Shown: positions 23,083 through 48,846 of the stretch, in pieces
Position numbering within the stretch: position 1 is the stretch's first letter
Layout: every line of letters starts with the position of its first letter
IMG/VR virus record: IMGVR_UViG_3300037067_013378
Location: 71,614 to 135,613 of that record
Length of the DNA stretch: 64,000 nt
Direction: 5' to 3' (one strand)
DNA from: a virus
Lineage: Duplodnaviria > Caudoviricetes
Position numbers and translations under genes: made by a program
Notes under the pieces: generated by a model
What the model was told of the DNA's origin: nothing
What the model saw: only the letters and a program-made list of their open reading frames with translations
Database searches by the model: none

Positions 23083-23085
23083 AAG

Positions 23086-23174: not shown

Positions 23175-23217
23175 ATCATATAGAACAAAGTTAGTAATAA
23201 TTTTTTAATAAACAAAA

Positions 23218-23967: not shown

Positions 23968-23970
23968 ATT

Positions 23971-24363: not shown

Positions 24364-24381
24364 AGATTTATAATTATTTAG

Positions 24382-24455: not shown

Positions 24456-24503
24456 ATATGTCTATTCAAATATAATATATTTTTTATCATTTAACAAAAA
24501 AGA

Positions 24504-26033: not shown

Positions 26034-26049
26034 AGTTTTAATTTTTTTG

Positions 26050-26135
26050 AGATGGGTGTGAGATTCGAACTCACGCTGGCATTTTATTGCAACAATTTTG
26101 CAGATTGTTCCCTTCAACCACTCAGGCAACCCATC
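26050..26135 (-). tRNA. tRNA-Cys(GCA) with long variable arm
   Basis: ACAAT-CT GCA AA-ATTGT, U73, 86 nt. Confidence 0.88.
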
Positions 26136-26659: not shown

Positions 26660-26807
26660 AATAGTTTAAAATATTAATATAAAATTATAAGACAATATAA
26701 ATTAATAACAATAAAAATAATTAAACAGATTATACCAACAATATTTTGATATTTATTATACCATATATCACTATTAAAAAAATTAATAATATTTTTAATT
26801 TTATTTA

Positions 26808-27248
26808 TCATAATATTTTATTTAATTTATGAACTCTTTGAATTTTTTTAACACTTTCTTTATTTGTTATTTTTGTTGTATTTAAATTTTCTGGAATTAT
26901 ATTCAATATTAAATATTTCTTTTCTTTTCTTGAAACTCTTGATATATATCCACATCTACATAAAGAATTAAGATAATTATCTATTTTTTTATTAGCTGAA
27001 TCATTCATAAAATTATAATACTCACTATCATTAATATCAAAAATATCATCAACCTTATAAGAATTAATAAAATCAATTAAATAATTAAAAGGTTTCTTAT
27101 AATGTAAAAGATATCTTTCACATAAAAAATAAGAATAAGTATCATGTTGTATATGACCTAATTTTAACAAATTTAATATAGATGCTATAAATTTTATATT
27201 ATCTACATCTTTTCTTTTTTTCAGTATATCTATTTCTCTTGCTTCCAT
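26808..27248 (-). CDS. Hypothetical, winged-helix-like, with RxxK motif
   Basis: IDNYLNSLCRCGYISR; ends RVHKLNKIL. Confidence 0.55.
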   Translation of the reverse strand: MEAREIDILKKRKDVDNIKFIASILNLLKLGHIQHDTYSYFLCERYLLHYKKPFNYLIDFINSYKVDDIFDINDSEYYNFMNDSANKKIDNYLNSLCRCGYISRVSRKEKKYLILNIIPENLNTTKITNKESVKKIQRVHKLNKIL

Positions 27249-27253
27249 TCTTT

Positions 27254-28531
27254 TTATTTTTTACTCTTATCATATGTTCTGGACTTAGCTTTGAAAGATA
27301 ATCTGTTAAAATTCGACCTACAAATTTTAGATTTCAATATATCATCTTTTGCTATAAAAACCCAACCTTCTGCTAATTGTGTTGGATTATTACCGAAAAC
27401 AGTGTAAAAATTATCTACATCTTTAAGTAACATTTCAGATGTTTCTGGTAATTTAAAATTATTATCAAGAATAGGAACTGTGTTTAACATCATTTCTTTA
27501 ATCATATCAATGAATTCATCATATGGGTAATAAAGAGATGTTTTAATATCAAAACTATTGTAAAAACAAATAGTTTTTTCTTTCAGTTTATAAATATTAC
27601 CTTGAATACCATCACCAACCAATTCACCTTGCAAAGAAAAATTAGGAATATTAAATTTAGAAGAAAATTCCCTCATTTTTTCTTCTACATTTAATTTTAT
27701 TGTAGTACTCCAATAATAGTTTACCAATTCATCATTCTCTGGTTTTTTGTAATTTATATTTCTACCACAAACACTAAACTCACCATTTTTTAAATTACAT
27801 GCGATGCTTGTACCTTCAAGTTTTTCGGTCTTATAATACAAGAATTGTTTTAATTTCTCATAATTTTTTTCCAAATTTTCAACTCTTTCTTCATCACTAA
27901 CCAAAATACCTACTTGTGCTAAATCACCAAGTACAATACCACCGTTAGAATTAACTTCAGGTGCTACATATTGAATAATACCTATAATATCAGTAACATC
28001 AAAATCTTCATCTAAAACTCTAACGTTTTTATTATATTCATTATTTGTTTGTTCAATAAAAACCTTATTGTTATTTGTAAATATTTTAGTGTTTTTATTA
28101 TTCAAAATTGATAATGGAAAACAAATACCTTGTGAAATCTGACCAAAAATTTCTCTTGTTTTAATACGAAATTTTCTTTCCCTTAAAAATTCAAATTCTG
28201 GTCTTGTGTTTTGTTTAGAAATTTCTTCCATTTCTTTCTTTATAGAAATTTTTTCTTCATCAACTTTTGATTTAGATAATTTCTTCTGTAATTCTTTCCA
28301 ACTCTGTTGTAATTCTTGTGATAAACCATCAGGCAAAACAGAATCAACTTCAACATATATACACAAATCACCAGCTTTAAACTCATTCTTCTTAACTACA
28401 ACATTCCAACCTCTAACTTTAGCTAATTCTAAATTATCAGAATCTTCAATTTGTGAAATATTTAAAATCTTTGCAACAGTTGCAAGTTTTCTGATATTTG
28501 CTGTTTCATTGATGTTTTGTACGTTTTCCAT
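27254..28531 (-). CDS. RNA ligase, DRB0094/Rnl2-related family
   Basis: RKLATV..GWNVVV..DSVLP N-domain; TEKLEGTS (motif I), QGELVG, EGWV, SFKAKS. Confidence 0.9.
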   Translation of the reverse strand: MENVQNINETANIRKLATVAKILNISQIEDSDNLELAKVRGWNVVVKKNEFKAGDLCIYVEVDSVLPDGLSQELQQSWKELQKKLSKSKVDEEKISIKKEMEEISKQNTRPEFEFLRERKFRIKTREIFGQISQGICFPLSILNNKNTKIFTNNNKVFIEQTNNEYNKNVRVLDEDFDVTDIIGIIQYVAPEVNSNGGIVLGDLAQVGILVSDEERVENLEKNYEKLKQFLYYKTEKLEGTSIACNLKNGEFSVCGRNINYKKPENDELVNYYWSTTIKLNVEEKMREFSSKFNIPNFSLQGELVGDGIQGNIYKLKEKTICFYNSFDIKTSLYYPYDEFIDMIKEMMLNTVPILDNNFKLPETSEMLLKDVDNFYTVFGNNPTQLAEGWVFIAKDDILKSKICRSNFNRLSFKAKSRTYDKSKK

Positions 28532-28538
28532 AATTTCA

Positions 28539-28937
28539 TTATTTTATTTTAGTCCAAACAATTTTCAGTGAATCTTCTTTTGATATCCAAATCATTTTAT
28601 TATTCTTAATTGAAAATAAAAAATTGATTTTGTTATCTTTATTTATATCTGTTTTTTCAAAATATGTTGAATCTTTAAAATATTGTTTATTTAAAATTAT
28701 ATTATCTGAAATAATATTAAATGAATCCGTAGGATATTTAAAACTTATTTTTTGGTCTGTTAATTGCAAATAATAAATATTATCGTGTGTAAAAATACAT
28801 TGAAACCAAAAATCATCATCATAATAAGTAAATCTCTCAGATTGCCACTTACCATAAATGTTATCATTTAATGTAGTTATATCTTTATTACAACCACAAA
28901 AAATAATCATCAATATTATTAAATGTAATTTTTTCAT
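28539..28937 (-). CDS. Putative lipoprotein (lipocalin-like)
   Basis: Signal ending FCGC; IYGKW. Confidence 0.55.
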   Translation of the reverse strand: MKKLHLIILMIIFCGCNKDITTLNDNIYGKWQSERFTYYDDDFWFQCIFTHDNIYYLQLTDQKISFKYPTDSFNIISDNIILNKQYFKDSTYFEKTDINKDNKINFLFSIKNNKMIWISKEDSLKIVWTKIK

Positions 28938-29305
28938 ATATCTTTATCTGCTTTTCTTTTATTACAAATTTCACACATAGTTCTATAATTAGATATTATA
29001 TTTTTTCCACCTTTAGATTTTGCTTTTATATGATCTTTTGTAAACAAAATCTCTTTTCCATCAGAATTCACACCATATAAATTTAAATGATAATTTAATG
29101 ATGGGTCTTCTTTAATTCTTTCAACAGCAAAATATTTTCCTTCTATACCACAATCACAACACTTAATACTATTTTGAAACACTTTATATCTTTGTGATGT
29201 AATTTTAACTGGTACATTAAATAATGTAATATATTCATTTTTACCTGTTTTGTTTTTTAAATCAGGTAAAATATTCAAATCTATTATTCCAACTCTAATT
29301 ATCAT
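28934..29305 (-). CDS. Small HNH endonuclease
   Basis: CCDCG..TKDHIKAKSKGG..N..MCEICN..K. Confidence 0.85.
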   Translation of the reverse strand: MIIRVGIIDLNILPDLKNKTGKNEYITLFNVPVKITSQRYKVFQNSIKCCDCGIEGKYFAVERIKEDPSLNYHLNLYGVNSDGKEILFTKDHIKAKSKGGKNIISNYRTMCEICNKRKADKDI

Positions 29306-29405
29306 AAAAAATTATATAGCTGCATAAATAGCAACAAATGTTATACTTATAATCATAAATATAAGTAAAACAACATACCAATTAATTGAAAATGTTTTCA
29401 TAATA

Positions 29406-29699
29406 TTATACATTATTATATTTAGAAACTAATTCATCTCTCAAATCATCAGTATATTTTGAATTAGGTATAAAAATGATGTTTGTACCAATACCACCAA
29501 TAGTTGATGGTTTATGAAAAACATAAAAATTGGTATCTCTTTTAATCCTATCTGAAATGTTACCAGATGAATTATATACATGTACTAATGTAAAAGTGTC
29601 GTTAATCTTATTATTTCTTATATCTTTAAGAAGTTCAATAACATTATCCATATCATCAAGAGATAGATTTGAAAATTCGTTTACAATTGTTTGTATCAT
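29406..29699 (-). CDS. Hypothetical protein (likely start 29699)
   Basis: TATATTTG promoter just upstream. Confidence 0.5.
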   Translation of the reverse strand: MIQTIVNEFSNLSLDDMDNVIELLKDIRNNKINDTFTLVHVYNSSGNISDRIKRDTNFYVFHKPSTIGGIGTNIIFIPNSKYTDDLRDELVSKYNNV

Positions 29700-29751
29700 A
29701 ATATTAAAATTTGACACAAATATAAGAATTTTTTGTTGAAATAAAAAATAA

Positions 29752-30648
29752 TTAATAATAATATGTTTTTTTATAATCATTTTCTAAAAAATAGGCATAT
29801 TTTATTAAAAAATTTTTTTCATAACCACCAGCGACTTCATCTGAATTTACATAAACCAAATTATTAAAATAATCAATATTTTCTTTATATTGTTCTTTTA
29901 TATAATACCAATTAAAACCACCATCTTGAACAATTATTTTATTAAAATTAGTAGATAAAATAGTTAATTTTTTTGTAAATGTAATATATAAAGCATACTT
30001 ATGACTAATTGGATAATATAAAAAATCATTACTCATGATTATATTGATATCACCTGTTATAAATGGGTACTTATTAAATAAACTATTTTTAATAAAAAAC
30101 CATTTACTGTTACAATTTAGTAAATAACTTAAATATTTTTGTTTTTCACTTGAATTTAAAAAACATAAATGAGCATCTTTTATATTTATATTAGAAACCT
30201 CTTTAAAAATATTGTTTAATTCAATTTCTATTATTTTTCTAATTTTATTTGATCTAAGCCATTCATAAATCAAATATTCAGCTATTAAAGGATATTTTTC
30301 TTTTATATCTAAATTTATATCACCAGATTCTATAATTTCGAAAATATTTGAAAAAATATCTTTAGCCTTTTGTTCGCTTTTTCCTAATATAGATGTTTCT
30401 ACATAATAAACATCATTTAAATTTAAGTGTTTTGCCATTTCATCAGATAATCTATAATAATTATTTTTACTAAAAACCTCTTCACATGTTCTTTCACCAT
30501 GTTCATTATAAATGTTTTTATTATTTTTTACCAAATAAAAAATTTTAGATTGTCTGTCATATGAATTATCATATGAAAAGTTTATTAATTGTGCCATTAT
30601 TGGACTTATATGATGATTTTGTGCCATTACTAAATTATTAATTTTCAT
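29752..30648 (-). CDS. DUF4238-like protein
   Basis: QNHHISP N-terminus; FITGD..YYPISHKYAL. Confidence 0.55.
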   Translation of the reverse strand: MKINNLVMAQNHHISPIMAQLINFSYDNSYDRQSKIFYLVKNNKNIYNEHGERTCEEVFSKNNYYRLSDEMAKHLNLNDVYYVETSILGKSEQKAKDIFSNIFEIIESGDINLDIKEKYPLIAEYLIYEWLRSNKIRKIIEIELNNIFKEVSNINIKDAHLCFLNSSEKQKYLSYLLNCNSKWFFIKNSLFNKYPFITGDINIIMSNDFLYYPISHKYALYITFTKKLTILSTNFNKIIVQDGGFNWYYIKEQYKENIDYFNNLVYVNSDEVAGGYEKNFLIKYAYFLENDYKKTYYY

Positions 30649-31348
30649 AATTTTTTAACCATTTTCTTATAGAATTATCTGAAACATTATATTTTCTTCC
30701 TGTTCCAGAATAACCTAATTCATTAATTTCAATAATTAATTGTTCATATGGTGGTCTTTCAACTTTTCTTTTTTTAGAATCTTTCTTATAACATTCTAAA
30801 CATCTATCACTATTTTTTGCCATTATATTACCGCATTCAGGACAAATATGTTCCTTTTTTTCTTTTTTAATTTTAATAGGTTGTATTTTACTTTTAAGAT
30901 TTTTTCCACAATGTGTATCAAGTGTTGCATTACAATTTGGACAAACAATTCTTAAATTTTCTATTCTGTTATCATTAGGTACACCATTTTTATGGTCTAA
31001 AATTAAACTCATATGCTTACCATTCCATTCTTCTCCTTGTCCACACATTTCACATATTCTTTCTTTTAATCCTTCTTTATATAATCTTTCTTTTAAATGA
31101 TTTGATGATTTATAATCTGATTTTTCTACTAAAATTTCTGTTAAATCTCTCTTAATATAATTTTGATTTAATAAATTTTTAGTTCTTCCAAAATGACTAA
31201 TATCAATATTAAATAATTTTATATAAGATGTTAAAGTATTATAATTACCTCCAAAATTTTTTAAGTTTAAATTTTTTAAAACATCTGTTTTATTATTAGA
31301 ATTTAATATAATTTCTCTTAATTCTTTTTCTGTAATATTCCATTTCAT
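30638..31348 (-). CDS. HNH homing endonuclease with C-terminal HTH
   Basis: LDHKNGVPNDNRIENLRIVCPNC; GRKYNVSDNSIRKW. Confidence 0.9.
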   Translation of the reverse strand: MKWNITEKELREIILNSNNKTDVLKNLNLKNFGGNYNTLTSYIKLFNIDISHFGRTKNLLNQNYIKRDLTEILVEKSDYKSSNHLKERLYKEGLKERICEMCGQGEEWNGKHMSLILDHKNGVPNDNRIENLRIVCPNCNATLDTHCGKNLKSKIQPIKIKKEKKEHICPECGNIMAKNSDRCLECYKKDSKKRKVERPPYEQLIIEINELGYSGTGRKYNVSDNSIRKWLKNYEN

Positions 31349-31412
31349 AATAGATTCTGTTATTTTTTAATTTATATATTAAAAAATATCGAACCCATTC
31401 GGAAAAAAAATG

Positions 31413-31495
31413 TGGGTGCAGAGAGATTCGAACTCCCGAAGTCCTAAGACTGATGCTCTACAGGCATCCGCAGTTGACCACTTTGCTATACACCC
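31413..31495 (-). tRNA. tRNA-Tyr(GTA)
   Basis: GATGC-CT GTA GA-GCATC, long variable arm. Confidence 0.93.
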
Positions 31496-31528
31496 ATTTA
31501 ATAAAAAAAGAAGTGTAATATATTTCAA

Positions 31529-31921
31529 TTACACTTCTTCATCTTTAAACAGTTCTTTTAATTTCAGATAACGAACTTTTTTCACCAAAAAACCTTGAAT
31601 TATTTTCTTCATTTCCTCATTCGAACCGAAGTAAGAATGATCAGATAATAAATACAACAATTCAACTTTTTCAGGTTCAAATTGTCCTTCAAATCCATAA
31701 CAAGAACAGTGTCCACCATGAACCTCATACAGTTCACCCGAAGATTTCTCTAAGAGTAAAAAATAAGAAGATTCTTCATACCCATCGCCATTAACTTCAG
31801 CAATTAAGATAAAGTATCTTTCTATCTCATGTTTTTCAACATGGTAGCTATATACAACATCATTAACAACATCGTCATATGACATACCTGAGTAGTCATC
31901 TAAAAATAAAAATTTTTCCAT
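31529..31921 (-). CDS. Hypothetical phage protein
   Basis: LYEVHGGHCSCYGFEGQ; RYLKLKELF. Confidence 0.7.
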   Translation of the reverse strand: MEKFLFLDDYSGMSYDDVVNDVVYSYHVEKHEIERYFILIAEVNGDGYEESSYFLLLEKSSGELYEVHGGHCSCYGFEGQFEPEKVELLYLLSDHSYFGSNEEMKKIIQGFLVKKVRYLKLKELFKDEEV

Positions 31922-32052
31922 AGTTATAATTGATTAGTTTTTTGGTAATTAAGAAATACATATCCTAATCGTTTTAACCAATTTGTTAACTAAGAATGAT
32001 TTTTACTTTTAAAATCTGTGTAAAGATAATAAAATATTTTTAATTATAAAAA

Positions 32053-32529
32053 TTATTTTCTTTTATTTAAAATATAATGTAATGTTCCTTTACTTGATAT
32101 ATTAAAATGATTCATTGTTTCTTTATATGAACGACATTTATTATAAAAATCAATAATTTCATTTGCTTCATATTTAATAATAAAAGAGGATGCATGTTTA
32201 GCATGTTTTTGTCTTTCTTCTTTAGGTGTGTCCATCATATTTTGACTTTTTGTGCCAAAATTAATATTATTCCAACTATTATCAATCTTATTGTTATTTA
32301 AATGTCTAATATCATAATTACTTTCATAAATTATATCACCAAATTTTTGATAAGCGACTAATTTATGAACATAACAACACATTATTTTATTTCCAAATCG
32401 TAAAGAAAAAATATAATAATTTTTTTTACTATCTAAATATATTTTTCTTTTTTTATTATATATGTTAAATACATTTCCATATTTATCTACATAATAACCT
32501 TTTTCATAAGCAATTTTTTCTACATGCAT
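32053..32529 (-). CDS. HNH endonuclease (HNH_3/I-HmuI-like)
   Basis: VHKLVA..IRHLNNNKIDNSWNNI..TKSQN. Confidence 0.85.
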   Translation of the reverse strand: MHVEKIAYEKGYYVDKYGNVFNIYNKKRKIYLDSKKNYYIFSLRFGNKIMCCYVHKLVAYQKFGDIIYESNYDIRHLNNNKIDNSWNNINFGTKSQNMMDTPKEERQKHAKHASSFIIKYEANEIIDFYNKCRSYKETMNHFNISSKGTLHYILNKRK

Positions 32530-32583
32530 AACTATTTTTATTTTTTATATCAATAAAATATAAAATAGTTTAAATATTTTTAG

Positions 32584-32657
32584 TACTGCCGATGAGATTC
32601 GAACTCACATTTCAAATCTTGAAGGGATTTTTTCCTGGCCAATTAGAAGACAGCAGC
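32584..32657 (-). tRNA. tRNA-Glu(TTC) with C33
   Basis: AAATC-CC TTC AA-GATTT. Confidence 0.88.
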
Positions 32658-32686
32658 ATATAAAATAATCAAATATTTATAAAAAG

Positions 32687-32762
32687 CGGTGCGTATGGGA
32701 TTTGAACCCATGAACTCAAGCGTGACAAGCTTGCATGATAGACCAGACTTCACCAACGCACC
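32687..32762 (-). tRNA. tRNA-Asp(GTC)
   Basis: CAAGC-TT GTC AC-GCTTG, G73. Confidence 0.93.
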
Positions 32763-32769
32763 ATATTAT

Positions 32770-32785
32770 CAACATGTCAAAGAAC
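32770..32785 (-). promoter_or_regulatory. boxA-like antitermination element
   Basis: GTTCTTTGACATGTTG; core shared with 41172-41185. Confidence 0.6.
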
Positions 32786-32793
32786 AATTTTTG

Positions 32794-32866
32794 CGGGAAT
32801 AACAGGGATCGAACCTGTAACCTACTGGTTAACAGCCAGTTGCTCTACCAATTGAGCTATATTCCC
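32794..32866 (-). tRNA. tRNA-Asn(GTT)
   Basis: ACTGG-CT GTT AA-CCAGT. Confidence 0.95.
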
Positions 32867-32877
32867 AAAAAATATAG

Positions 32878-32951
32878 TTGCGGGAGGTGGATTCGAACCA
32901 CCGACCTCTTGATTATGAGTCAAGCAAGCTGACCAACTGCTCTACCCCGCA
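32878..32951 (-). tRNA. tRNA-Met(CAT), initiator-like body
   Basis: TGCGGGGTAGAGCAG; CTTGA-CT CAT AA-TCAAG. Confidence 0.92.
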
Positions 32952-32960
32952 ATATTTCTT

Positions 32961-32973
32961 TTAAAGAACTCTT
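32961..32973 (-). promoter_or_regulatory. boxA-like element after first tRNA of array
   Basis: AAGAGTTCTTTAA, identical to 40987-40999. Confidence 0.6.
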
Positions 32974-32975
32974 AG

Positions 32976-33057
32976 TACCCCTAGAAGGACTCAAACCTTC
33001 ACGCCTTTCGGCACATGATCCTAAGTCATGGATGTCTATCAATTCCACCATAGGGGC
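32976..33057 (-). tRNA. tRNA-Leu(TAG)
   Basis: CATGA-CT TAG GA-TCATG; A19/U56 variant. Confidence 0.9.
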
Positions 33058-33060: not shown

Positions 33061-33091
33061 AAACAAAAAAACCAGCTTTTCGGCTGGTTTT
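33061..33091 (-). terminator. Attenuator terminator ahead of minus-strand tRNA array
   Basis: AAAACCAGC-CGAAAA-GCTGGTTTT plus T-run, 3 nt before tRNA-Leu. Confidence 0.85.
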
Positions 33092-33113
33092 CTTTATATA
33101 TTTATTCAAATCT

Positions 33114-33209
33114 TTATTTTGAACATACACATAGTTCCACCAGCTTAGATTTTGTCATCTCTTCATCTAAGTTATTAAGTAGATAATTATATATGTTACA
33201 ATTTTCCAT
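33114..33209 (-). CDS. Leader peptide A (31 aa) MENCNIYNYLLNNLDEEMTKSKLVELCVCSK
   Basis: ATG..TAA read by hand; contains GCTGGT complementary to terminator 5' arm; codons 1-18 match downstream tRNAs. Confidence 0.8.
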   Translation of the reverse strand: MENCNIYNYLLNNLDEEMTKSKLVELCVCSK

Positions 33210-33281
33210 TTGAATTTATTTTAATTTTATTTTTACTTATATATTCTTTTTAAAATGTCATTTTTTTCCGAAATGACTTTG

Positions 33282-40493: not shown

Positions 40494-40640
40494 TATGATA
40501 ATTTTGTACAAATATAATAAAATAAAATGTAATAAAAAATATTAATAAAAAATAATGTATATGAATTAATAGTAAATTAAAGCATTTAAGGGTTTTTATT
40601 TCAATAAAATATAAATTATTTAAAAATATTTTTAAACTTT

Positions 40641-40671
40641 TTTGTTTTTTAAAATATAAGTACTATATTTG
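40641..40671 (+). promoter_or_regulatory. Bacteroidota-type housekeeping promoter for leader B
   Basis: TTTG-N19-TATATTTG. Confidence 0.75.
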
Positions 40672-40725
40672 CAAAATCAAATTTAGAAAAAAACGATATT
40701 TTTTAAAGAATATATAATAAAACAA

Positions 40726-40830
40726 ATGAGAAATAATATTAACATATCAGTGATTAGTTCGATTAAACGCCATTGGTCATTTAAAAACCAAATGGGTCTG
40801 GTATGCTTATATCTTTTTTGTAATGTATAA
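40726..40830 (+). CDS. Leader peptide B (34 aa) MRNNINISVISSIKRHWSFKNQMGLVCLYLFCNV
   Basis: ATG..TAA read by hand; contains GGTCTGG complementary to terminator 5' arm; codons 8-20 match downstream tRNAs. Confidence 0.8.
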   Translation: MRNNINISVISSIKRHWSFKNQMGLVCLYLFCNV

Positions 40831-40856
40831 ATAAGAAAAAATTAAAAGAGATAAAG

Positions 40857-40889
40857 AAAATCCAGACCACAAAAAGGTCTGGATTTTTT
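40857..40889 (+). terminator. Attenuator terminator ahead of plus-strand tRNA array
   Basis: AAAATCCAGACC-ACAAAAA-GGTCTGGATTTT plus T-run. Confidence 0.88.
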
Positions 40890-40911
40890 GTTTTATGTGG
40901 TTTTTTGAAAT

Positions 40912-40985
40912 GGGGGTATCGGCAATTGGCTAGTCAAACTGACTCCAAATCAGTATCAGTGGGAGTTCGAATCTCTCTGCCCCTG
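40912..40985 (+). tRNA. tRNA-Trp(CCA)
   Basis: ACTGA-CT CCA AA-TCAGT, G73. Confidence 0.9.
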
Positions 40986-40986
40986 C

Positions 40987-40999
40987 AAGAGTTCTTTAA
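40987..40999 (+). promoter_or_regulatory. boxA-like element after first tRNA of array
   Basis: AAGAGTTCTTTAA. Confidence 0.6.
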
Positions 41000-41004
41000 T
41001 ATAT

Positions 41005-41079
41005 GGTGCTTGTAGTTCAGTTGGTTAGAATGTCTGATTGTGGATCAGAAGGTCATCAGTTCAAATCTGATCAAGCACC
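41005..41079 (+). tRNA. tRNA-His(GTG)
   Basis: TCTGA-TT GTG GA-TCAGA, G-1/C73. Confidence 0.95.
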
Positions 41080-41082
41080 CTA

Positions 41083-41257
41083 AATTTATCGGTTGAAAAA
41101 CAGATAAATGATAATTATCGGCTAAATAGGCGATAATTTACAATTATAGACTAAAAAGGCTATAATTTAGGTCTTTGACATGTTGGTATTGAAAATTTTT
41201 TAAAAATTAGGTTTGTAGACCTATAAACAAGTTTTATAGGTTTATAGACCTATAATT
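41083..41257 (+). repeat. Tandem degenerate hairpin repeats in tRNA spacer
   Basis: Three ~29-nt units (AATTATCG-N10-CGATAATT type) then AGGTTTRTAGACCTATAA twice. Confidence 0.6.
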
Positions 41258-41258
41258 T

Positions 41259-41331
41259 GGAGTGATGACCGAGTTGCTCAAGGTGTTGGTCTGAAAAACC
41301 AATAATGTAGGTTGGATTCCTACTCACTCCA
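41259..41331 (+). tRNA. tRNA-Phe(GAA), C19/G56 variant
   Basis: TTGGT-CT GAA AA-ACCAA; T-loop TTGGATT. Confidence 0.85.
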
Positions 41332-41378
41332 CTCAGAACCAATATTATTTAATATATACTTTAAAAATAAAGTGTTAT

Positions 41379-42245
41379 ATGAATAATATTAATTGGGTTG
41401 AAGTTCAAAAATTTTATGATGATAATCATTTTTGGAAAGATGTTTTAAAAGAATTTAAGTTAAATAACGAAAAATTATGTAATGGTGTTAAATTAGGTTA
41501 TTTTAAAACAAGAAATAGAGAAGAATCATCAAAATTACATAACCAATTATATCCAAGAAAACATACAGAAGAAAGTAAAAAATTAATATCAGAAAAAAGA
41601 AAAAAATTTTTAATTGAAAATCCAGATAAAGTTCCATATTTAATGAATCATTATTCTAAAGGTGATAGTTATCCAGAAAAATATTTTGAAAATATTCTTA
41701 AAAAATATAATATTAATTATATTAAAAAATATAGAATTCACACATATGAATTAGATTTTGCAATTTTAGATAAGAAAATTGATATTGAAATTGATGGAGA
41801 ACAACATTATTTAGATAAAAGAATTATTGAATCTGATAAGAGAAGAAATATTTATTTAGAAAATGATGGCTGGGTTATATTAAGAATAAGATGGTCAGAT
41901 TATCAAAAATCAAATAAAGAAGAATATGTTAAAAATTTTATTAATTATTTAAACGATTTAACTTTAAATACACCCATATTTAATATAATTGAAAAAATTG
42001 ATTCACATAAAAATTATTGTGAATGTGGAAATATAAAATGGAAAAGTTCAAAAATTTGTTTATCTTGTTATAATAAAAAAAGAATGTTATATAAAAAACC
42101 ATCTTATGAACAATTACTTAATGATATAAAAGAAACAAATTATTCTGCAACAGGAAGAAAATATGGAGTTTCAGATAATTGTATTAGAAAATGGTTAAAA
42201 AAATATAAAACGGAATATAGCTCAGTTGGTAGAGCATCTGACTGA
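41379..42245 (+). CDS. DUF559/Vsr-like endonuclease with NUMOD3-like motif and C-terminal HTH
   Basis: YELDFA..IEIDGEQH..GWVILRIRW; GRKYGVSDNCIRKW. Confidence 0.85.
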   Translation: MNNINWVEVQKFYDDNHFWKDVLKEFKLNNEKLCNGVKLGYFKTRNREESSKLHNQLYPRKHTEESKKLISEKRKKFLIENPDKVPYLMNHYSKGDSYPEKYFENILKKYNINYIKKYRIHTYELDFAILDKKIDIEIDGEQHYLDKRIIESDKRRNIYLENDGWVILRIRWSDYQKSNKEEYVKNFINYLNDLTLNTPIFNIIEKIDSHKNYCECGNIKWKSSKICLSCYNKKRMLYKKPSYEQLLNDIKETNYSATGRKYGVSDNCIRKWLKKYKTEYSSVGRASD

Positions 42246-42283
42246 TATTCAGAAGGTCGATGGTTCAATTCCATCTATTCCGA
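42211..42283 (+). tRNA. tRNA-Ile(GAT)
   Basis: TCTGA-CT GAT AT-TCAGA. Confidence 0.92.
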
Positions 42284-42354
42284 CTAAATTAAAAAATATT
42301 TTTATAAAAATTTTTTAAATTCAAAAAATTATATTACATTTGTATTATAAAAAT

Positions 42355-42428
42355 GACCTCTTAGCTCAGTTGGTAGATGCACCACACTTTTAATGTGGGG
42401 GTCCTGGGTTCGAATCCCAGAGGGGTCA
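42355..42428 (+). tRNA. tRNA-Lys(TTT)
   Basis: CCACA-CT TTT AA-TGTGG. Confidence 0.92.
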
Positions 42429-42448
42429 CAAAAATTTTTAAGAATTGA

Positions 42449-42644
42449 AAAATGGGAAGTTGGCTTGGAAGCAGCCAGTAACCTTGGAAAAGTACAAACT
42501 TTTAAAGAGTGATTTGAAGCCTTATGTGATGAATATGAGTTCCGTATTATTAATCCCTAAAAGATTTGGGAAAATTACATTAAAAGTACCAAACACTAGA
42601 GGTTGTAATCCTTACAAATCTTTGGCGTAACAGCACACCATTTT
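42449..42644 (+). ncRNA. Structured RNA containing the 23S rRNA H43/H44 (uL11-binding) motif with two insertions
   Basis: GTTGGCTTGGAAGCAGCCA ... TTTAAAGAGT ... GCGTAACAGC-ACA closed by AAAATGG/CCATTTT. Confidence 0.75.
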
Positions 42645-42665
42645 ATTTTAAAAATTTTTGTAAGT

Positions 42666-42693
42666 CCTCTCACCTTATCGGTGAGAGGTTTTT
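42666..42693 (+). terminator. Intrinsic terminator inside the tRNA array
   Basis: CCTCTCACC/GGTGAGAGG plus TTTTT. Confidence 0.75.
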
Positions 42694-42703
42694 GCTATTG
42701 TAA

Positions 42704-42776
42704 GGGGGTGTAGTTTAACTGAAAAAAACCTGACACTACGGATGTCATAATGGGAGTTTGAATCTTCTCACCCTCA
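42704..42776 (+). tRNA. tRNA-Arg(ACG), A19/U56 variant
   Basis: TGACA-CT ACG GA-TGTCA. Confidence 0.85.
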
Positions 42777-42798
42777 CTAAAAAATAAAAAATTATATT

Positions 42799-43023
42799 AT
42801 GATGAACATTAAAGAAATTATCAAAGATAATAAAGTATATTTTCACTTTATTAGAGCAAATAATGCTTTTTATAAAATTTTATATAATGATATATGGTAT
42901 ATGTTTCCAGTTTCTTTATTAGAATTAGGAGATGCTACATTATTATCTGAAGATAAAGCTATATTTTTCATGAGGTATATTAGAAAAGCTTTAGAAAATA
43001 ATGAATTTGTTATAGCAACATAA
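42799..43023 (+). CDS. Hypothetical protein
   Basis: FPV..LGDATL..DKAIFFMRYIRK. Confidence 0.65.
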   Translation: MMNIKEIIKDNKVYFHFIRANNAFYKILYNDIWYMFPVSLLELGDATLLSEDKAIFFMRYIRKALENNEFVIAT

Positions 43024-43027
43024 ACAT

Positions 43028-43116
43028 GGAAGGTCGAAATGGACAGAGCTTATCCGTTTTGAAAACGGTGATGTCAGTGAGTAACTGATGTAGGAGTTGG
43101 ATTCTCCTACCTTCCG
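43028..43116 (+). tRNA. Atypical tRNA-Ser(TGA)
   Basis: Acceptor GGAAGGT/ACCTTCC-G, long variable arm, CCGT-TT TGA AA-ACGG; weak D-arm, TTGG T-loop. Confidence 0.7.
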
Positions 43117-43205
43117 CTTTTTGAATGATTTATAATTCACTATCTTATATTTTTTAAGTTATTGAATGATTTATCATACGTATAAGGTTTAAATCTTATT
43201 AATAT

Positions 43206-43283
43206 AGGATGTTAGCGCAGTTGGTTTAGCGCATCTGCCCTACAAGCAGAGGGTCATCAGTTCAAATCTGATACATCCTACCA
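43206..43283 (+). tRNA. tRNA-Val(TAC) with C33 and encoded CCA
   Basis: TCTGC-CC TAC AA-GCAGA. Confidence 0.92.
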
Positions 43284-43378
43284 AATTAAAATTTTTCAAA
43301 AAACTTCAAAAAAACTGACATTTTTCAGTTTTATGATATCATCAAATAATATATACATAAAAAATATATTATATAAAG

Positions 43379-43768
43379 ATGAAAGAGAAATTTATTCCTT
43401 ACCACACACATTTAATAGTAAAAGGTTATATTTATAATCCACCTATGAATGAAGAAAAATTAAATGAATTTTTTATAGATTTAGTAGAATCTGTTAATAT
43501 GAAAGTTGTGGCTGGCCCAACATCAGTCTATGTTGATGATTTAGGTAATGAAGGTATGACAGGAACAGTTACGTTAGCAACAAGTCATGCAAGTCTTCAT
43601 GTGTGGTCAGAAGAAAATCCATCACTTTTTCATTTTGATTTATACAGTTGTTCTAAATTTGATCACAAAAAAGTTTTAGATTTTATTGGTGATAGATTTG
43701 ATATGATTGATTATAAATTTTGGTTTATTGATAGAAATGATGATTTTCAACTTATTGACAAAAATTAA
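43379..43768 (+). CDS. S-adenosylmethionine decarboxylase proenzyme-like protein
   Basis: GMTGTVTLATSHASLHVWSE..DLYSC. Confidence 0.8.
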   Translation: MKEKFIPYHTHLIVKGYIYNPPMNEEKLNEFFIDLVESVNMKVVAGPTSVYVDDLGNEGMTGTVTLATSHASLHVWSEENPSLFHFDLYSCSKFDHKKVLDFIGDRFDMIDYKFWFIDRNDDFQLIDKN

Positions 43769-43769
43769 A

Positions 43770-43802
43770 AAAATGCTCTACCTTTATAAGTAGAGCATTT
43801 TT
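43770..43802. terminator. Bidirectional intrinsic terminator
   Basis: AAAATGCTCTAC/GTAGAGCATTTT. Confidence 0.8.
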
Positions 43803-43817
43803 CAATTTTTATATAAA

Positions 43818-44186
43818 TTAAGAAATAACTACAGTTTTAAATGTAAAATTTAAATTTAAAGCTTCGGAATAATATTCACCAAGTTCTTTTAAATCTTCAT
43901 CATCTTCTTCATAACCCCAAATAATAGTTTCAACATTTTTTGTTAAATCTATTTTTCGTAAAATGTTATAAATACATTTACTTGAAGAAGTATTGATGTA
44001 TTCTAGTTCAAAAGATATAGTTAATTTATTATTTTTTAATAAATTTAACAAAATTTCTTCAACATTTGAATAGAAATTAATAGCGTGTTCAGGGAAAGAT
44101 TTACCACTTAATGTGAAAATGTTTTTTTCATCATCAAAATAAATTGTTGGTGTGTTAGGTGATTTTTCAATTAATAAATTATTCAT
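43818..44186 (-). CDS. SiaC/DUF1987 family protein
   Basis: TPTI..LSGKSFPE..YINTSSSK..W.YEEDDED. Confidence 0.85.
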   Translation of the reverse strand: MNNLLIEKSPNTPTIYFDDEKNIFTLSGKSFPEHAINFYSNVEEILLNLLKNNKLTISFELEYINTSSSKCIYNILRKIDLTKNVETIIWGYEEDDEDLKELGEYYSEALNLNFTFKTVVIS

Positions 44187-44342
44187 AAAATAAGGTTTTA
44201 AAAAGTTTTGTAAATATTTTTAAAGAAAGTGCAAAGTTATATTTAAAAAATGTATAAAAAAATTTATTATATTTAAAAAAATATTATATTTGTTGAACAT
44301 TTAAATTTGTTATATTAATATATAAAAATAAAAGACTAAATT

Positions 44343-44708
44343 ATGGCTGTATCAAATTACCATGAACCATATTTTAATATTGATAGAGAAAATAATAGAA
44401 TTGATTTAAGTGGTAGATCAACTATAGAATATGCTTATAATCATTATATGGGTATCATAGAAAAAGTGAAAGAATATATAAAAGAAAAACCAGAAAAGGT
44501 TGATATACATGTAAAATTAGATTATTTTAATACTACATCATCAAAATGTATTTTAGATTTGTTTAAAACTTTTAGAGAAATATCAATGTTAAAGCATAAT
44601 ATTACAATATATTGGTATTATGAAGAAGATGATGAAGATATAAAAGAAGCTGGTATGGATTATAGTGAAATTTTAACATATATAAAATTTGAGTTTGTTG
44701 AATTTTAA
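44343..44708 (+). CDS. SiaC/DUF1987 family protein
   Basis: LSGRS..YFNTTSSK..WYYEEDDED. Confidence 0.85.
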   Translation: MAVSNYHEPYFNIDRENNRIDLSGRSTIEYAYNHYMGIIEKVKEYIKEKPEKVDIHVKLDYFNTTSSKCILDLFKTFREISMLKHNITIYWYYEEDDEDIKEAGMDYSEILTYIKFEFVEF

Positions 44709-44953
44709 ACAAAATATAAATTATAATATATAATAGATATGAAAGTATGCATGACAGATATAGTGAAAATTATTTTAAATAAAAAATTTTCAAATAAAGA
44801 AATAAAAAATGATAAAAATTTAAAAAAAGATGATACTTTTGTTATATTAGGTAATGTGTATAAAATATCATCTAAATAAAATATTTTATTATGAATTGTA
44901 AAAAAATAAATAAATTAGCTATGATGTAAATTAAAAAAATAATATTTACACAT

Positions 44954-45184
44954 ATGTCTAAGTCTTATAAAAAAACACCAATTTTTGGTATAGCAGGTTC
45001 TTCAGAAAAAGAAGATAAAAGATTTGCGAATAGAGCTTTTAGAAGAATATCTAAAGTTTTATTGAATAAAGAAGAATACGAAAAAATACCAATAAGAATG
45101 AGAGAAACAATTGATGTTTGGTGTATGTCAAAAGATGGTAAATCTTATTGGTCTAATGCTCCAGATAGATTTTATAGAAAATAA
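44954..45184 (+). CDS. Small basic hypothetical protein
   Basis: MSKSYKKTP..KRFANRAFRR..WCMSKDGK. Confidence 0.65.
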   Translation: MSKSYKKTPIFGIAGSSEKEDKRFANRAFRRISKVLLNKEEYEKIPIRMRETIDVWCMSKDGKSYWSNAPDRFYRK

Positions 45185-45228
45185 AATTTTTTAAACTTTT
45201 TCATAAAAAATAATATAATTTAATTATT

Positions 45229-45315
45229 GGAGAGTTGGCCGAGTGGTTGATGGCGTTAGTCTTGAAAACTAAAGTACGGGAAACTGTATCGGGGGTTCGA
45301 ATCCCTCACTCTCCG
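45229..45315 (+). tRNA. tRNA-Ser(TGA)
   Basis: TTAGT-CT TGA AA-ACTAA, long variable arm. Confidence 0.95.
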
Positions 45316-45338
45316 CTTAAAAAATATTAATTTTTTAT

Positions 45339-46050
45339 ATGACTGATTATGAAAAAGAAATTATATCTTATAGAAAACAAGGTAAGACTTATAAAGAGAT
45401 AAAACAAATCTTAAAAATTTCTAAATCTACAATATCTTATTATTGCACTAAAAATAAATTAAATATATTATTTGAATCTACTAAACCTTCTAATATAGAA
45501 GAAATAATTTTATTTAAAAATGAATATCATACAGCAAAAGATACAATAGATAAATTTAAATTAAGTAGATATACTTATTATAAGTATATACACCCATTAG
45601 TTCAAAAAAATGTTTCCTTTAATAAAAAGAAAAAAAAAAGAATTAAGTGTTTTTTGTTGTTTAAATTGTGGAAAAGAAATATTATCTTTATATAAAAATA
45701 GAAAATTTTGTGACCATGATTGTCAGAATGAATATTATTTTAATATTAAAATTGAAAAATGGTTAAAAGGTGAAATAACAGGTAAAAGAGGGAAAACAGC
45801 AACAGCAAGTTGGATAAAAAAATATTTAATTAAAAAATTTGGAGAAAAATGTATGATATGTGGGTGGTCAGAAAGAAATCCATACACATTAAATATACCA
45901 ATAGAATTAGAACATATAGATGGTGATTATACTAATAACAATATTGATAATTTAATATTATTGTGTCCAAATTGTCATTCATTAACACCAACATATAAGG
46001 GTGCAAATAAAAAAGGAAGACCACGATCAAAATATTATAGAGGATTGTAA
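45339..46050 (+). CDS. HTH + HNH endonuclease split by a frameshift in an A10 run (~45630-45639)
   Basis: N-half HTH (45339-45695); C-half ELEHIDGDYTNNNIDNLILLCPNCH (45610-46050). Confidence 0.75.
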
Positions 46051-46094
46051 ACTTTTTTAAAAAATTAAACTATATTAAAAAAAATATTTAAATT

Positions 46095-46952
46095 ATGAAA
46101 TCACAAAGATCATCAAGAGTGAATATGAAAGAATTAGAAATTTTTGATTTTTTCTATATTGATACAAATTTACCAAAACATAAAAAGGTTAATGATAGTG
46201 AAAATCATTTTACTGTTCGAAATGATTTTCTTGTTGAAAATGATTTTGCACCATCTACTGGTGGTTTTTATGGACAAAATATGTCAATAAAACAAAAAAT
46301 TAAGAATTGGATAATTTCAAAATTAGATTCTAATAAAAAAGATAAAAAAATAAAAAGAGTTATAAGTATTCCAGAGTTTTTTACTTCTATGTCAAAATCA
46401 TTTGAAGAATTAACATCAGTTTTAGATGTAGCTTTATATTATGAAAAAGCTTTAGTGCAAGCAAATGAAAATGGACAAGTTGCGTTAGAGCAAAAAATTA
46501 AAGATAATATCAACATAGTTAAATATGAAGCACAATTAATTTCTATTGGTTTAACAAAATATGTAACAGAAAAACAAGTAATAGATTTATTTGAAAAAGT
46601 TGGTGAAGATAAAAATTTAAAATTAACTTGGATAAAAAATTTTAATAGAATTATACCAGAAAATGTTTATAAGATAAAAAAAGATGTAGATAGCAGGTTA
46701 ATTTTTGATAATTATGTAATTTTACATTATGATCCTATTAATAATGGAGAAAAACTTACAAAAGAAGAAATAGAATATAAAAAAGACCCAATTTTATTTG
46801 GTTTAATTAATAATAGTAAGAAATTATATTATGTTGCTGATTGGAAAGATGATTATTGTGACCTTACACTTGAAGAAATGTTTAACACACTTGGTGAAAA
46901 TGTTTTAGAGATTAATAATAAAAACGTTAAAACATTTATTGATAAAATTTAA
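46095..46952 (+). CDS. Hypothetical phage protein
   Basis: IKNFNRIIP..DPILFG..LYYVADW.D.YCDLT. Confidence 0.7.
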   Translation: MKSQRSSRVNMKELEIFDFFYIDTNLPKHKKVNDSENHFTVRNDFLVENDFAPSTGGFYGQNMSIKQKIKNWIISKLDSNKKDKKIKRVISIPEFFTSMSKSFEELTSVLDVALYYEKALVQANENGQVALEQKIKDNINIVKYEAQLISIGLTKYVTEKQVIDLFEKVGEDKNLKLTWIKNFNRIIPENVYKIKKDVDSRLIFDNYVILHYDPINNGEKLTKEEIEYKKDPILFGLINNSKKLYYVADWKDDYCDLTLEEMFNTLGENVLEINNKNVKTFIDKI

Positions 46953-46957
46953 AAATT

Positions 46958-47430
46958 ATGAGTAGTTTTAATGATTTTCAAAAAAAGTATGGTATATCAA
47001 AAATAACATTTATATCTGAAAGTACAATATCACCCATATGTAAAATTGATTTTGTTAATAATAATATTTTAAATATAAATTTACCAAATTTTGATATTAT
47101 AAACACAAAAGAAAAATTATATAAATATATAGAACAACCTTTGATAGAATATTATAAAAAAATAAGAAAACAAAAATTAGATGAAATTCAAAAATAAAGA
47201 ACATTATAATGAGTAGTTTTGATAATTTTGATAAAATGTATGGTGTTTCACGACTTTGGTTTAAAGGAAAAACTATTTGTAAAATTAAATTTATTAATGA
47301 TGATATTTTGGATGTTTATATACCAAATCATATAAATACAAGAGAAAATTTATATGAACATATAGAAAATGATATAAGAAAATATTTTAGAAAAATAAGA
47401 AAACAAAAATTAGATGAAATTGCAAATTAA
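46958..47430 (+). CDS. Tandem paralogous small genes (46958-47197, 47209-47430)
   Basis: MSSF..F.K.YG..ICKI.F.N..IL..KIRKQKLDEI in both. Confidence 0.7.
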
Positions 47431-48106
47431 AGAATATCGTAATGATTGGTTTGAATTTTATCCTAATTTTGGATTTAATATATCATATGATTTTGCATCA
47501 TATTATCATGATGTACCACAAATTCATTTTCATTTTATTTGGGGTAGTTTTTATATTAATTTAATTAATTATAAGAATGTTATAAACAAAATCTTTAATA
47601 AAAATATTGAATCTTATTATGAATATAATCCACCATCATATGGTGTTTATTATCATTCAAAAGCTTTTTGGTTTAAATATGGTAAAGATAAAGTTAAATG
47701 TATAAGATTACCTTTTTATTATGATTGGATTAGAACATCATATTTAAAAAAAGATGGTACATGGGGTGTAGATAAATCAAGAAAAAGATTTTCTGATATT
47801 TTTAATTATGAAAATCAATTATGGTCTGAAAAATATCCTTATGTTTATAAATTAAATAATGGTGAAATACAAGAAAGAATAGCAACAGTTACTGTTGTAG
47901 AACGAGAATGGAGAATGTTATTTATTAAATTCACTAAATTGTTTAATAAGATAGATAAAAGTATAGATATTAATTTTGATAAAGAAGTTGGTGAAAGTTT
48001 TGGATCATATAAAGGTGGTTGTTATGGGTGTTCTTATACAATGTTAAAAAATGAAACACCAGAACAAACATTAAGAAGAATGGAAAAAGAAAGAATTTTT
48101 AAATAA
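47414..48106 (+). CDS. Hypothetical protein
   Basis: EREWR..EVGE..GSYKGG. Confidence 0.65.
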   Translation: MKLQIKEYRNDWFEFYPNFGFNISYDFASYYHDVPQIHFHFIWGSFYINLINYKNVINKIFNKNIESYYEYNPPSYGVYYHSKAFWFKYGKDKVKCIRLPFYYDWIRTSYLKKDGTWGVDKSRKRFSDIFNYENQLWSEKYPYVYKLNNGEIQERIATVTVVEREWRMLFIKFTKLFNKIDKSIDINFDKEVGESFGSYKGGCYGCSYTMLKNETPEQTLRRMEKERIFK

Positions 48107-48148
48107 TAGGGTTTTGTATATTTAAAGGTCTTACATTAAAGACTTTTT

Positions 48149-48616
48149 ATGAGAAAAATATTGTTTTTATTTTTATTATTTTTTTTATCATCTTGTTCAT
48201 TATTTAAAACTTCAGAATTATATAAAGGTTATACGGTGTTACCTTTAGTTAAATCTAAAGGAATGTTATTTTTAAATGTTACGTTAAATGGAAAAAATGC
48301 AATGTTATTAATAGATACTGGTTCAAGTAAATCTATACTTGATATAAATAAAGAAAATAAGTATAATTTTAAACACACAAATTTTAAAAATGAAAGATTT
48401 ATTGGTATTGGTGGTATTCAAGATATTTACATTGTTTATGATTATAAAATTGATGGTTTTTTAATTTCAATGGTTGGAACTACGTTAGAAGAAATAACAC
48501 CATATTTTTTTAGTGATGGTATAGAAATTGTTGGAATAATTGGTTCTGATTTTTTAAATGATAAAGAAGCAAAAATTGATTATACAAATCAAATATTATA
48601 TATTAAAAATTATTAA
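48149..48616 (+). CDS. Retropepsin-like aspartic protease, lipoprotein
   Basis: LSSC lipobox; LIDTGSS, GIIGSDFL. Confidence 0.85.
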   Translation: MRKILFLFLLFFLSSCSLFKTSELYKGYTVLPLVKSKGMLFLNVTLNGKNAMLLIDTGSSKSILDINKENKYNFKHTNFKNERFIGIGGIQDIYIVYDYKIDGFLISMVGTTLEEITPYFFSDGIEIVGIIGSDFLNDKEAKIDYTNQILYIKNY

Positions 48617-48690
48617 TATTGTTAAATATAATTTTTTTCTTATATTTGTTTATATTTTTAAATAAAATTAATATTATTAAATATAATTTT

Positions 48691-48779
48691 GGAGAGGTGC
48701 TTGAGTCTGGTTTAAAAGGCCAACCTGCTAAGTTGGTGTACGAGAAATTGTACCAAGGGTTCGAATCCCTTTCTCTCCG
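48691..48779 (+). tRNA. tRNA-Ser(GCT)
   Basis: CCAAC-CT GCT AA-GTTGG, long variable arm. Confidence 0.93.
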
Positions 48780-48846
48780 CATATATTAATAATTTTAAAC
48801 TTTTCTATCTTTTATAACTATAATATTTATAAAAAAATAATAAATT

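Follow-up and report, generated by a model that had tools for sequence, protein, structure and literature searches.

Leader open reading frames matched to their own tRNA arrays point to ribosome-mediated transcription attenuation of tRNA genes in a putative huge-phage contig

The DNA considered here is a 64-kb stretch (hereafter the window) that forms the right-hand end of one virus contig of 135,613 bp, with a G+C content of 22% (positions 71,614 to 135,613 of the IMG/VR record IMGVR_UViG_3300037067_013378). Between positions 40641 and 40889, a short leader open reading frame (ORF) and an intrinsic terminator precede an array of transfer RNA (tRNA) genes. Such cassettes are present three times in the contig (hereafter called cassettes A, B and C), and in every copy the order is the same: a shared putative promoter, a leader ORF that contains a copy of the 3' arm of the terminator, a spacer hairpin over the stop codon, the terminator and the tRNA genes. 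The 5' parts of the three cassettes can be aligned. The components of cassette B are the following, in window coordinates, the energies and folds being computed ones.

40641-40671, plus strand: promoter-like pair TTTG (40641-40644) and TAnnTTTG (40664-40671), with a spacing of 19 nt
40686-40716, plus strand: phage promoter-like motif of 31 nt, a sequence pattern consisting of GAAAAAAAYGAY, N TTTT, 4-12 nt and ATATATA
40726-40830, plus strand: leader ORF B, 34 codons with a TAA stop (sequence and translation)
40747-40785, plus strand: regulatory run of 13 codons (codons 8-20), encoding SVISSIKRHWSFK
40770-40777 (CCATTGGT) with 40787-40795 (ACCAAATGG), plus strand: weak anti-antiterminator (1:2), found in the full-length minimum free energy fold
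40795-40801, plus strand: segment 2, GGTCTGG, the copy of the terminator 3' arm, which pairs with 40862-40868 to form the antiterminator
40806-40820 with 40843-40856, plus strand: spacer hairpin, with the stop codon (40828-40830) in its loop; upper part of the antiterminator
40857-40889, plus strand: intrinsic terminator, with a 12-bp stem, a 7-nt loop and T6 (40884-40889), -16.6 kcal/mol, 22 nt before tRNA-Trp
40912-48780, plus strand: tRNA array B, with Trp-cca, His-gtg, Phe-gaa, Ile-gat, Lys-ttt, Arg-acg, Ser-tga, Val-tac, Ser-tga and Ser-gct (ARAGORN, Rfam)

Using standard wobble as the decoding rule, with A34 taken as inosine, we found that the 13 codons of the run include, for each of the nine anticodon types of array B, at least one codon that it reads. 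A sequence-only reading of this DNA had claimed that codons 8-20 are readable by the downstream tRNAs with all nine anticodons covered, which is borne out by the sequence, its translation and the ARAGORN and Rfam predictions. It had also described CGC and TCG as uncommon in this genome; in the long ORFs, CGC represents 0.4% of Arg codons (0.11 per 1000 codons) and TCG 1.4% of Ser codons. The positions that it gave for the pairing segments were all correct, as judged from the sequence and the fold. The tRNA genes of array B are interspersed with endonuclease-like and other ORFs.

We scanned the six frames of the 135.6 kb for runs of codons readable by array B. A single run is longer than that of the leader, with 14 codons restricted to F, H, I, K and W; that of the leader thus comes second, and it is the sole long run harbouring all eight amino acids of array B. 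As array-B codons represent 0.359 of all triplets, the probability of such a run by chance is approximately 1.6e-6 per start, or 4e-4 per 250-nt leader. The corresponding per-start probabilities from triplet frequencies are 3.6e-8 for leader A and 1e-16 for leader C, whose cassettes comprise the following elements.

33238-33268 (genome 104851-104881), minus strand: 31-nt promoter-like motif ahead of leader A
33114-33209, minus strand: leader ORF A, 31 codons
33139-33144, minus strand: segment 2 of cassette A, GCTGGT, which pairs with the terminator 5' arm at 33083-33088
33065-33094, minus strand: terminator A, 7 nt ahead of tRNA-Leu
19998-33057, minus strand: tRNA array A, with Leu-tag, Met, Asn, Asp, Glu, Tyr, Cys, Met, Met, Leu-taa and Met (four tRNAs with CAT anticodons)
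L007:10855-11100: leader C, with its ORF at L007:10912-11031 (genome 70912-71031), just outside the start of the window
L007:10855-10885: 31-nt promoter-like motif ahead of leader C
755-3744, plus strand: in-window part of tRNA array C, with Gln, Pro, Gly, Thr and an intron-bearing tRNA (3458-3744) read as Arg-UCU

The three arrays split the amino acids without overlap, and so do the leaders: L, M, N, D, E, Y and C for cassette A, W, H, F, I, K, R, S and V for cassette B, and G, P, A, Q and T plus Arg-AGA for cassette C. Each leader matches its own array only. The own-set runs of leaders A and C are 18 codons each and are the longest of the contig in six frames, the next best being 16 (followed by 14) for the array-A set and 8 for the array-C set. 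In leader C, the 18 codons for T, A, Q, G and P together with AGA form a continuous run despite the 22% G+C content of the genome. In leader A, codons 1-18 specify L, M, N, D, E, Y and C, with in addition one ATA. All of them are readable by array A, provided that one of the CAT tRNAs is an Ile2 tRNA and that Leu-tag reads CTT. The CAT-anticodon genes lie at 19998-20073, 23893-23967, 24381-24455 and 32877-32951, all on the minus strand, and no Ile-tat gene is present in the contig. The tRNA at 19998-20073 resembles phage tRNAs annotated as tRNA-Ile and is a candidate for a lysidine-containing Ile2 reader of the ATA codon, and that at 24381 has an initiator-like 1:72 mismatch. When the four were typed through the annotated phage tRNAs most similar to them, the labels were mixed.

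The AGA codons of leader C fit its array because the intron-bearing tRNA at 3458-3744 (plus strand) carries UCU. This gene has a 212-nt intron in the anticodon loop, and ARAGORN calls it Ser-gct, yet it lacks the long variable arm. Applying the group-I splice rules, by which a U precedes the 5' splice site and the intron ends in G, yields the anticodon UCU (Arg). Arg-tct genes without an intron occupy the equivalent place in the C-type arrays of two related phage records, G001 and G002 (see below). A search for a group I intron in 3350-3850 gave no Rfam match at E values up to 1.

The relatives of the contig were recognized through its major capsid protein, which shares 78-80% identity with those of three IMG/VR phage records, G001 (640 kb), G002 (676 kb) and G003 (a 98-kb fragment), and 63.5% identity with that of the GenBank record LR756501.1 (735 kb). 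A 735-kb phage genome of the Mahaphage clade has been published as the largest known, and Bacteroidetes are the predicted hosts of Mahaphages >634 kb (PMC7162821). Because of these matches to phages of 640-735 kb, the contig is most likely a piece of a huge, Mahaphage-type phage. The three array types recur in G001 and G002, where a homologous cassette precedes each of them. We collected further cassettes from eight additional contigs, in which the arrays are partitioned differently, by scanning for the promoter-word pattern and then running ARAGORN. This yielded 21 cassettes from 11 related huge-phage contigs, including the three described here, and LR756501.1 provided three more. As G001 and G002 are close, the 21 cassettes do not count as independent cases; the independent part of the evidence consists of the permutation tests within genomes and of the differently partitioned arrays.

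Among the other partitions are Pro/Ala/Gly, Thr/Gly/Arg/Val/Ala, Glu only, Ile/Asp/Asn/Cys/Gln/Met, Met/Gln/Ile-tat/Glu and Lys/Phe/Ser/Trp/His. A contig of 8.6 kb (L097, minus strand over its whole length) has a single array of 23 tRNAs, preceded by a 40-codon leader with 19 of the 20 amino acids, Gly being the missing one. Five Leu tRNAs (tag, gag, caa, taa and tag) of LR756501.1 (193690-196721, minus strand; L198) are found behind a 22-codon leader in which CTA, CTT, CTG, TTA, CTC and TTG occur one time each ahead of segment 2.

For the comparison of leaders with arrays, we used automatically extracted ORFs without their initiator Met, and background frequencies from the genome described here. 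Over the 20 cassettes (10 contigs) that were informative, the match of a leader to its own array has a mean z score of 3.84, a value reached by none of 200,000 random re-pairings, and the true pairing is the best permutation in all six contigs that have two or three cassettes. The match is also specific to the reading frame. In frame, 59% of the amino acids belong to the leader's own array and stops are absent, whereas the two alternative frames have 31% and 29% of such amino acids, with 48 and 76 stops, respectively (20 cassettes). It extends to isoacceptors. Thus, in this genome, G001 and G002, CGC is found in the B-type leaders, whose arrays have Arg-acg, and AGA or AGG in the C-type leaders, whose arrays have Arg-tct or Arg-cct. 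Similarly, ATA is present in leader A of this genome, with its four CAT tRNAs and no Ile-tat, and in leader B of G001 and G002, where Ile-tat belongs to array B. Between this phage and G001, the leader peptides have 11 to 20 identical positions, and 17 of the 27 substitutions in their first two thirds stay within the amino-acid set of the array.

The RNA elements are conserved along with the codons. A terminator hairpin is present in each of the 21 cassettes, and its 5' arm is complementary to a stretch within the last third of the ORF. A finder for terminators with perfect stems missed 7 of the 21 cassettes, and an RNAfold-based finder was used instead. In the 14 perfect-stem cassettes, the exact complement is 7.6 nt long on average, as opposed to 4.5 nt with foreign terminators, and the duplex energy over the 21 cassettes is -11.8 kcal/mol, versus -7.1 kcal/mol in cross controls (Mann-Whitney p = 7e-8). 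Since the terminator cores vary among cassettes, the pairing of segment 2 represents covariation, with at least 10 different terminator stems. In cassette B the two terminator arms are CCAGACC (40862-40868) and GGTCTGG (40876-40882), and in cassette C segment 2 is CTGAGTG. The number of terminator-like sites is 18, against 1.8 expected in shuffles. Leaders A and C also have the equivalent hairpin across the stop codon, which is in its loop or stem. The antiterminator of cassette B is a long composite hairpin consisting of segment 2, the spacer hairpin and the terminator 5' arm.

We computed the effect of stalled ribosomes on folds of a transcript that ends before the terminator 3' arm, as the uncut fold is uninformative for a kinetic switch. 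In cassette B, the predicted pairing probability of segment 2 is approximately 0.86-0.89 for stalls at codons 1-19 and 0.76 at codon 20, and it falls to 0.04-0.48 with the A site at codons 21-30. In cassette A, the antiterminator probability is approximately 0.85 for stalls at codons 1-18, and the structure is blocked by a ribosome further on. The end of the matched run coincides with the onset of the masking of segment 2 by the ribosome. Before the terminator 3' arm exists, the antiterminator is favoured by 6.6 kcal/mol in cassette B and 2.6 kcal/mol in cassette A. The terminator is followed by the first tRNA after 22 nt in B and 7 nt in A, which leaves no room for a separate promoter.

The cassettes also share their upstream elements. 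The TTTG/TAnnTTTG block is kept in all three cassettes of the contig and in those of G001 and G002. The pair resembles the housekeeping promoter type of Bacteroidota (the Bacteroides -33/-7 consensus) and is a putative promoter. The 31-nt motif has only four copies in the 135.6-kb contig, namely those ahead of the three leaders and the following one.

Genome 46444-46476 (L006:6444-6476), minus strand: 31-nt promoter-like motif ahead of the major capsid gene

The motif is present ahead of the capsid gene in two other related contigs (G004 and G005) and in LR756501.1 as well. The 640-kb G001 has five copies, three of them before tRNA arrays and one just upstream of the match to the capsid gene. 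As it is common to leaders and capsid gene, this motif is probably a late or strong promoter of the phage clade. Because of the shared motif, the tRNA arrays probably represent late or high-demand units. No match in viral contigs was obtained with a strict DNA pattern that covers the two promoter blocks. No exact match to the promoter pattern was found in LR756502, LR745206 and LR756504, in which diverged cassettes were not looked for.

Another recurrent element is a boxA-like word, TTCTTTGACAT and variants, which in most of the 21 cassettes lies a short distance 3' of the attenuator terminator or of the first tRNAs. In this contig it occurs at these places.

41172-41185: boxA-like word
32770-32783: boxA-like word
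L007:11116-11126: boxA-like word

Taken together, the matched codon run, the conserved complement in the ORF and the position of the terminator suggest ribosome-mediated transcription attenuation in which leader B acts as the sensor and polls how well the tRNA isoacceptors encoded by its own array are supplied, and we give this reading a probability of about 0.8. From these features we infer that the ORF is translated, that transcription terminates at the predicted site and that the outcome responds to tRNA supply. Transcription would begin at the type of promoter also used for the capsid gene, and a ribosome would translate the 34-codon leader. With fast decoding of 40747-40785, the ribosome would cover segment 2 and enter the spacer hairpin at the stop codon. 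Segment 2 being blocked from pairing with the 5' arm, the terminator at 40857-40889 would form, and the polymerase would halt 22 nt before tRNA-Trp. If any of the aminoacyl-tRNAs of the run is scarce, the ribosome would stall upstream of segment 2. The composite antiterminator, made up of segment 2, the spacer hairpin and 40862-40868, would then form, allowing the polymerase to enter the tRNA genes. Degradation or cleavage of host tRNAs would likewise turn the array on. As the run polls every isoacceptor encoded in the array, such a device would exert negative feedback on the supply of phage tRNAs. We infer that arrays A and C are gated by paralogous attenuator cassettes. On polymerases that have passed the attenuator, the boxA-like word could load an rrn-type antitermination complex.

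The sequence-only reading had likened this arrangement to a trp leader. The ORF, the run of cognate codons, the terminator and the GGTCTGG antiterminator strand are indeed all present and conserved in paralogues and related phages, which supports an attenuator of this kind. The picture needs adjusting in that the 1:2 helix is the weaker state, the untranslated leader is predicted to be ON, and the antiterminator is the composite hairpin, which would be split by a ribosome reaching the stop codon. Before the terminator 3' arm is made, the 1:2 state of cassette B falls 6.6 kcal/mol short of the antiterminator; a 1:2 helix is more evident in cassette C, with a pairing probability of 0.18 without a ribosome. 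Since the antiterminator is favoured by 6.6 kcal/mol, an untranslated leader B would read through, unlike trp. When the ribosome is at the stop codon, our simple model permits segment 2 to pair around it, with the ribosome in the 60-nt antiterminator loop, where it would melt the spacer hairpin. We consider such pairing sterically implausible.

Several observations weigh against attenuation as proposed here. With the full terminator present, the equilibrium fold gives a terminator probability of approximately 1 at every stall position, and the switch must therefore be kinetic. The 1:2 helix is weak; it is the fold that competes with the antiterminator if the terminator 5' arm is left unpaired. 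In cassette B, only 9 nt separate the 31-nt motif from the ATG, so that the mRNA may be nearly leaderless, if that motif is the promoter used. Codons 2-7 of leader B and its tail are unmatched to the array, and the enrichment over the whole ORF is modest (z = 1.7). Leader C has one Val codon, whereas the Val-tRNA belongs to array B, and the leaders of G001 have Asn and Phe codons, with no Asn or Phe tRNA detected by ARAGORN in the array stretches examined. Finally, array B spans 8 kb and holds ORFs as well as strong terminator-like hairpins at 42666-42688 (plus strand), between Lys and Arg, and at 43769-43802 (both strands), after Val. Because of these internal ORFs and sites, one attenuator may not control the distal tRNAs, and the array may comprise more than one transcription unit.

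Other explanations would use the same elements differently. The cassette might be constitutive, with a fixed, leaky terminator that keeps tRNA low relative to leader RNA or a hairpin that stabilises the leader RNA, and with a codon match that serves another purpose, such as tying translation of the leader to the products of the array without switching. This would agree with a terminator that always wins at equilibrium. We nevertheless consider it unlikely, as it leaves unexplained both the covarying complement of the 5' arm in every ORF, with its at least 10 stems, and the fact that the matched run stops where the masking of segment 2 begins. A little less probable still is the possibility that the same attenuator hardware responds to amino-acid starvation, that is, to uncharged tRNA, with tRNA output raised when amino acids are short. 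A stalled ribosome is blind to the difference between a missing and an uncharged tRNA, and the leaders match their arrays at the level of amino acids too. However, extra tRNA gives no relief from a shortage of amino acids, and the leaders are specific for isoacceptors, as seen from CGC versus AGA, the six Leu codons, and ATA, which follows Ile-tat or a CAT tRNA.

That the leaders produce small functional peptides or a trans-acting small RNA, with the terminator ending that gene and the tRNAs being transcribed from elsewhere, appears very improbable to us. In other bacteria, leader peptides and the RNAs released by terminated attenuators can be active in trans, as reported for peTrpL/rnTrpL of Sinorhizobium (PMC7298713), and the tails of the phage peptides are hydrophobic. 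Against this idea, composition is conserved more than sequence relative to G001, and the gap of 7-22 nt between terminator and tRNA in A and B is too short for a promoter; moreover, a role in trans could add to attenuation rather than replace it. As for a fortuitous juxtaposition of an unrelated small ORF and a terminator ahead of an array, short ORFs are abundant in AT-rich genomes, and F, I, K and S occur frequently. The low per-start probabilities, the three paralogues and 18 further cassettes, and the absence of any equal among the 200,000 permutations effectively refute it.

We compared the proposed attenuator of tRNA supply with known regulatory systems. The trpL, hisL, leuL, pheL, thrL and ilvL leaders of E. 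coli and Salmonella likewise combine a short ORF, regulatory codons and a choice between terminator and antiterminator that is decided by the position of the ribosome, and the Leu-only cassette of LR756501.1 resembles leuL in spirit. Those attenuators control biosynthetic enzymes, whereas the genes controlled here would be tRNA genes, and the multivalency of thr and ilv concerns two or three amino acids, whereas one phage leader would poll 5-9 tRNA species, by isoacceptor. The phage antiterminator also differs from theirs by the spacer hairpin over the stop codon, the weak 1:2 helix and the untranslated state predicted to be ON, and the phage cassettes belong to huge phages of predicted Bacteroidota hosts. 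Rfam leader families gave nothing significant on 40600-40915, the best being Phe_leader with 15.3 bits for a threshold of 55. T-box riboswitches similarly sense tRNA status through the choice between terminator and antiterminator. However, they bind uncharged tRNA directly, by means of a specifier codon and the T-box sequence, without translation and in front of synthetase or amino-acid genes, whereas the reader here would be a ribosome. No T-box family was among the Rfam matches on the leader at E values up to 10.

Bacterial ribosomal and tRNA operons use boxA, to which the boxA-like word of most phage cassettes is a likeness. The boxA system makes the loaded polymerase resistant to terminators without codon sensing; here, it would act downstream of the attenuator. 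In Salmonella, the mgtCBR leader ORF carries proline codons. That system responds to a single amino acid and controls virulence and Mg2+ genes rather than the tRNA itself, hence there is no feedback on tRNA supply. Translation of the mgtCBR leader ORF, and with it the supply of the tRNA required, is expected to determine downstream transcription by attenuation (PMC3641672), as proposed here. In Anabaena sp. PCC 7120, the accessory tRNA array of the trn operon is silent and is induced when translation is impaired (PMC8421152), under the control of the protein repressor TrcR (PMC10272220). That array is thus cellular and controlled by a repressor, whereas the phage arrays are viral and putatively controlled by attenuators; the words attenuation, leader peptide and terminator are absent from both of these papers. 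A full-text search for leader-peptide attenuation of tRNA genes, in phages or elsewhere, found none, with most subscription journals outside its coverage, and the Mahaphage paper (PMC7162821) does not mention attenuation.

Other features of the contig deserve mention. Within or next to array A are genes for a transposase homologue (17402-18592, minus strand; PHROG phrog_506, integration and excision) and an RNA ligase homologue (27254-28531, minus strand; phrog_968), the latter possibly involved in tRNA repair. Further downstream in the window, 56901-59315 (plus strand) codes for an 804-residue homologue of ATP-dependent proteases/chaperones (phrog_4871, E 3e-235). Divergent from leader C, L007:9600-10769 (genome 69600-70769, minus strand) codes for an ankyrin-repeat protein of 389 residues with generic homologues only, and a second ankyrin protein on the contig has 349 residues. 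Near the left end of the contig, approximately 17 tandem copies of a unit of about 63 bp, revealed by a regularly spaced 9-mer, are found at L004:518-1531 (genome 518-1531). Searches for relatives by means of the M23 peptidase gave three distant loci, all devoid of tRNAs, and those with the RNA ligase gave no useful loci. Identical DNA is present in groundwater and landfill metagenomes from public runs, and no RNA run was among those containing it. Over 40560-41000, the contigs from four landfill runs provided only identical copies and no sequence variants.

The proposal bears on the regulation of phage tRNA genes and on the reason for which huge phages have dozens of these genes arranged in blocks. 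We think there is a good chance that the tRNA genes of the Mahaphage clade are self-tuning modules, each array having a 'pangram' leader, so that tRNAs are made only when their own codons are decoded slowly. Slow decoding could stem from the demand of late genes, from loss of host tRNAs or from cleavage by anticodon nucleases. If this is true, translation-sensed feedback control of tRNA genes would represent a new regulatory class and the first cis-regulatory logic for viral tRNA genes, and the reach of classical attenuation would go beyond amino-acid metabolism to include the translation machinery. The cassette would constitute a compact, portable sensor of the supply of a single tRNA isoacceptor, and the promoter class shared with the capsid gene would give a handle on the transcription programme of uncultured phages of 600-700 kb, including LR756501.1. 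The partition of tRNAs into arrays would define regulatory units, which would explain how these genes are grouped.

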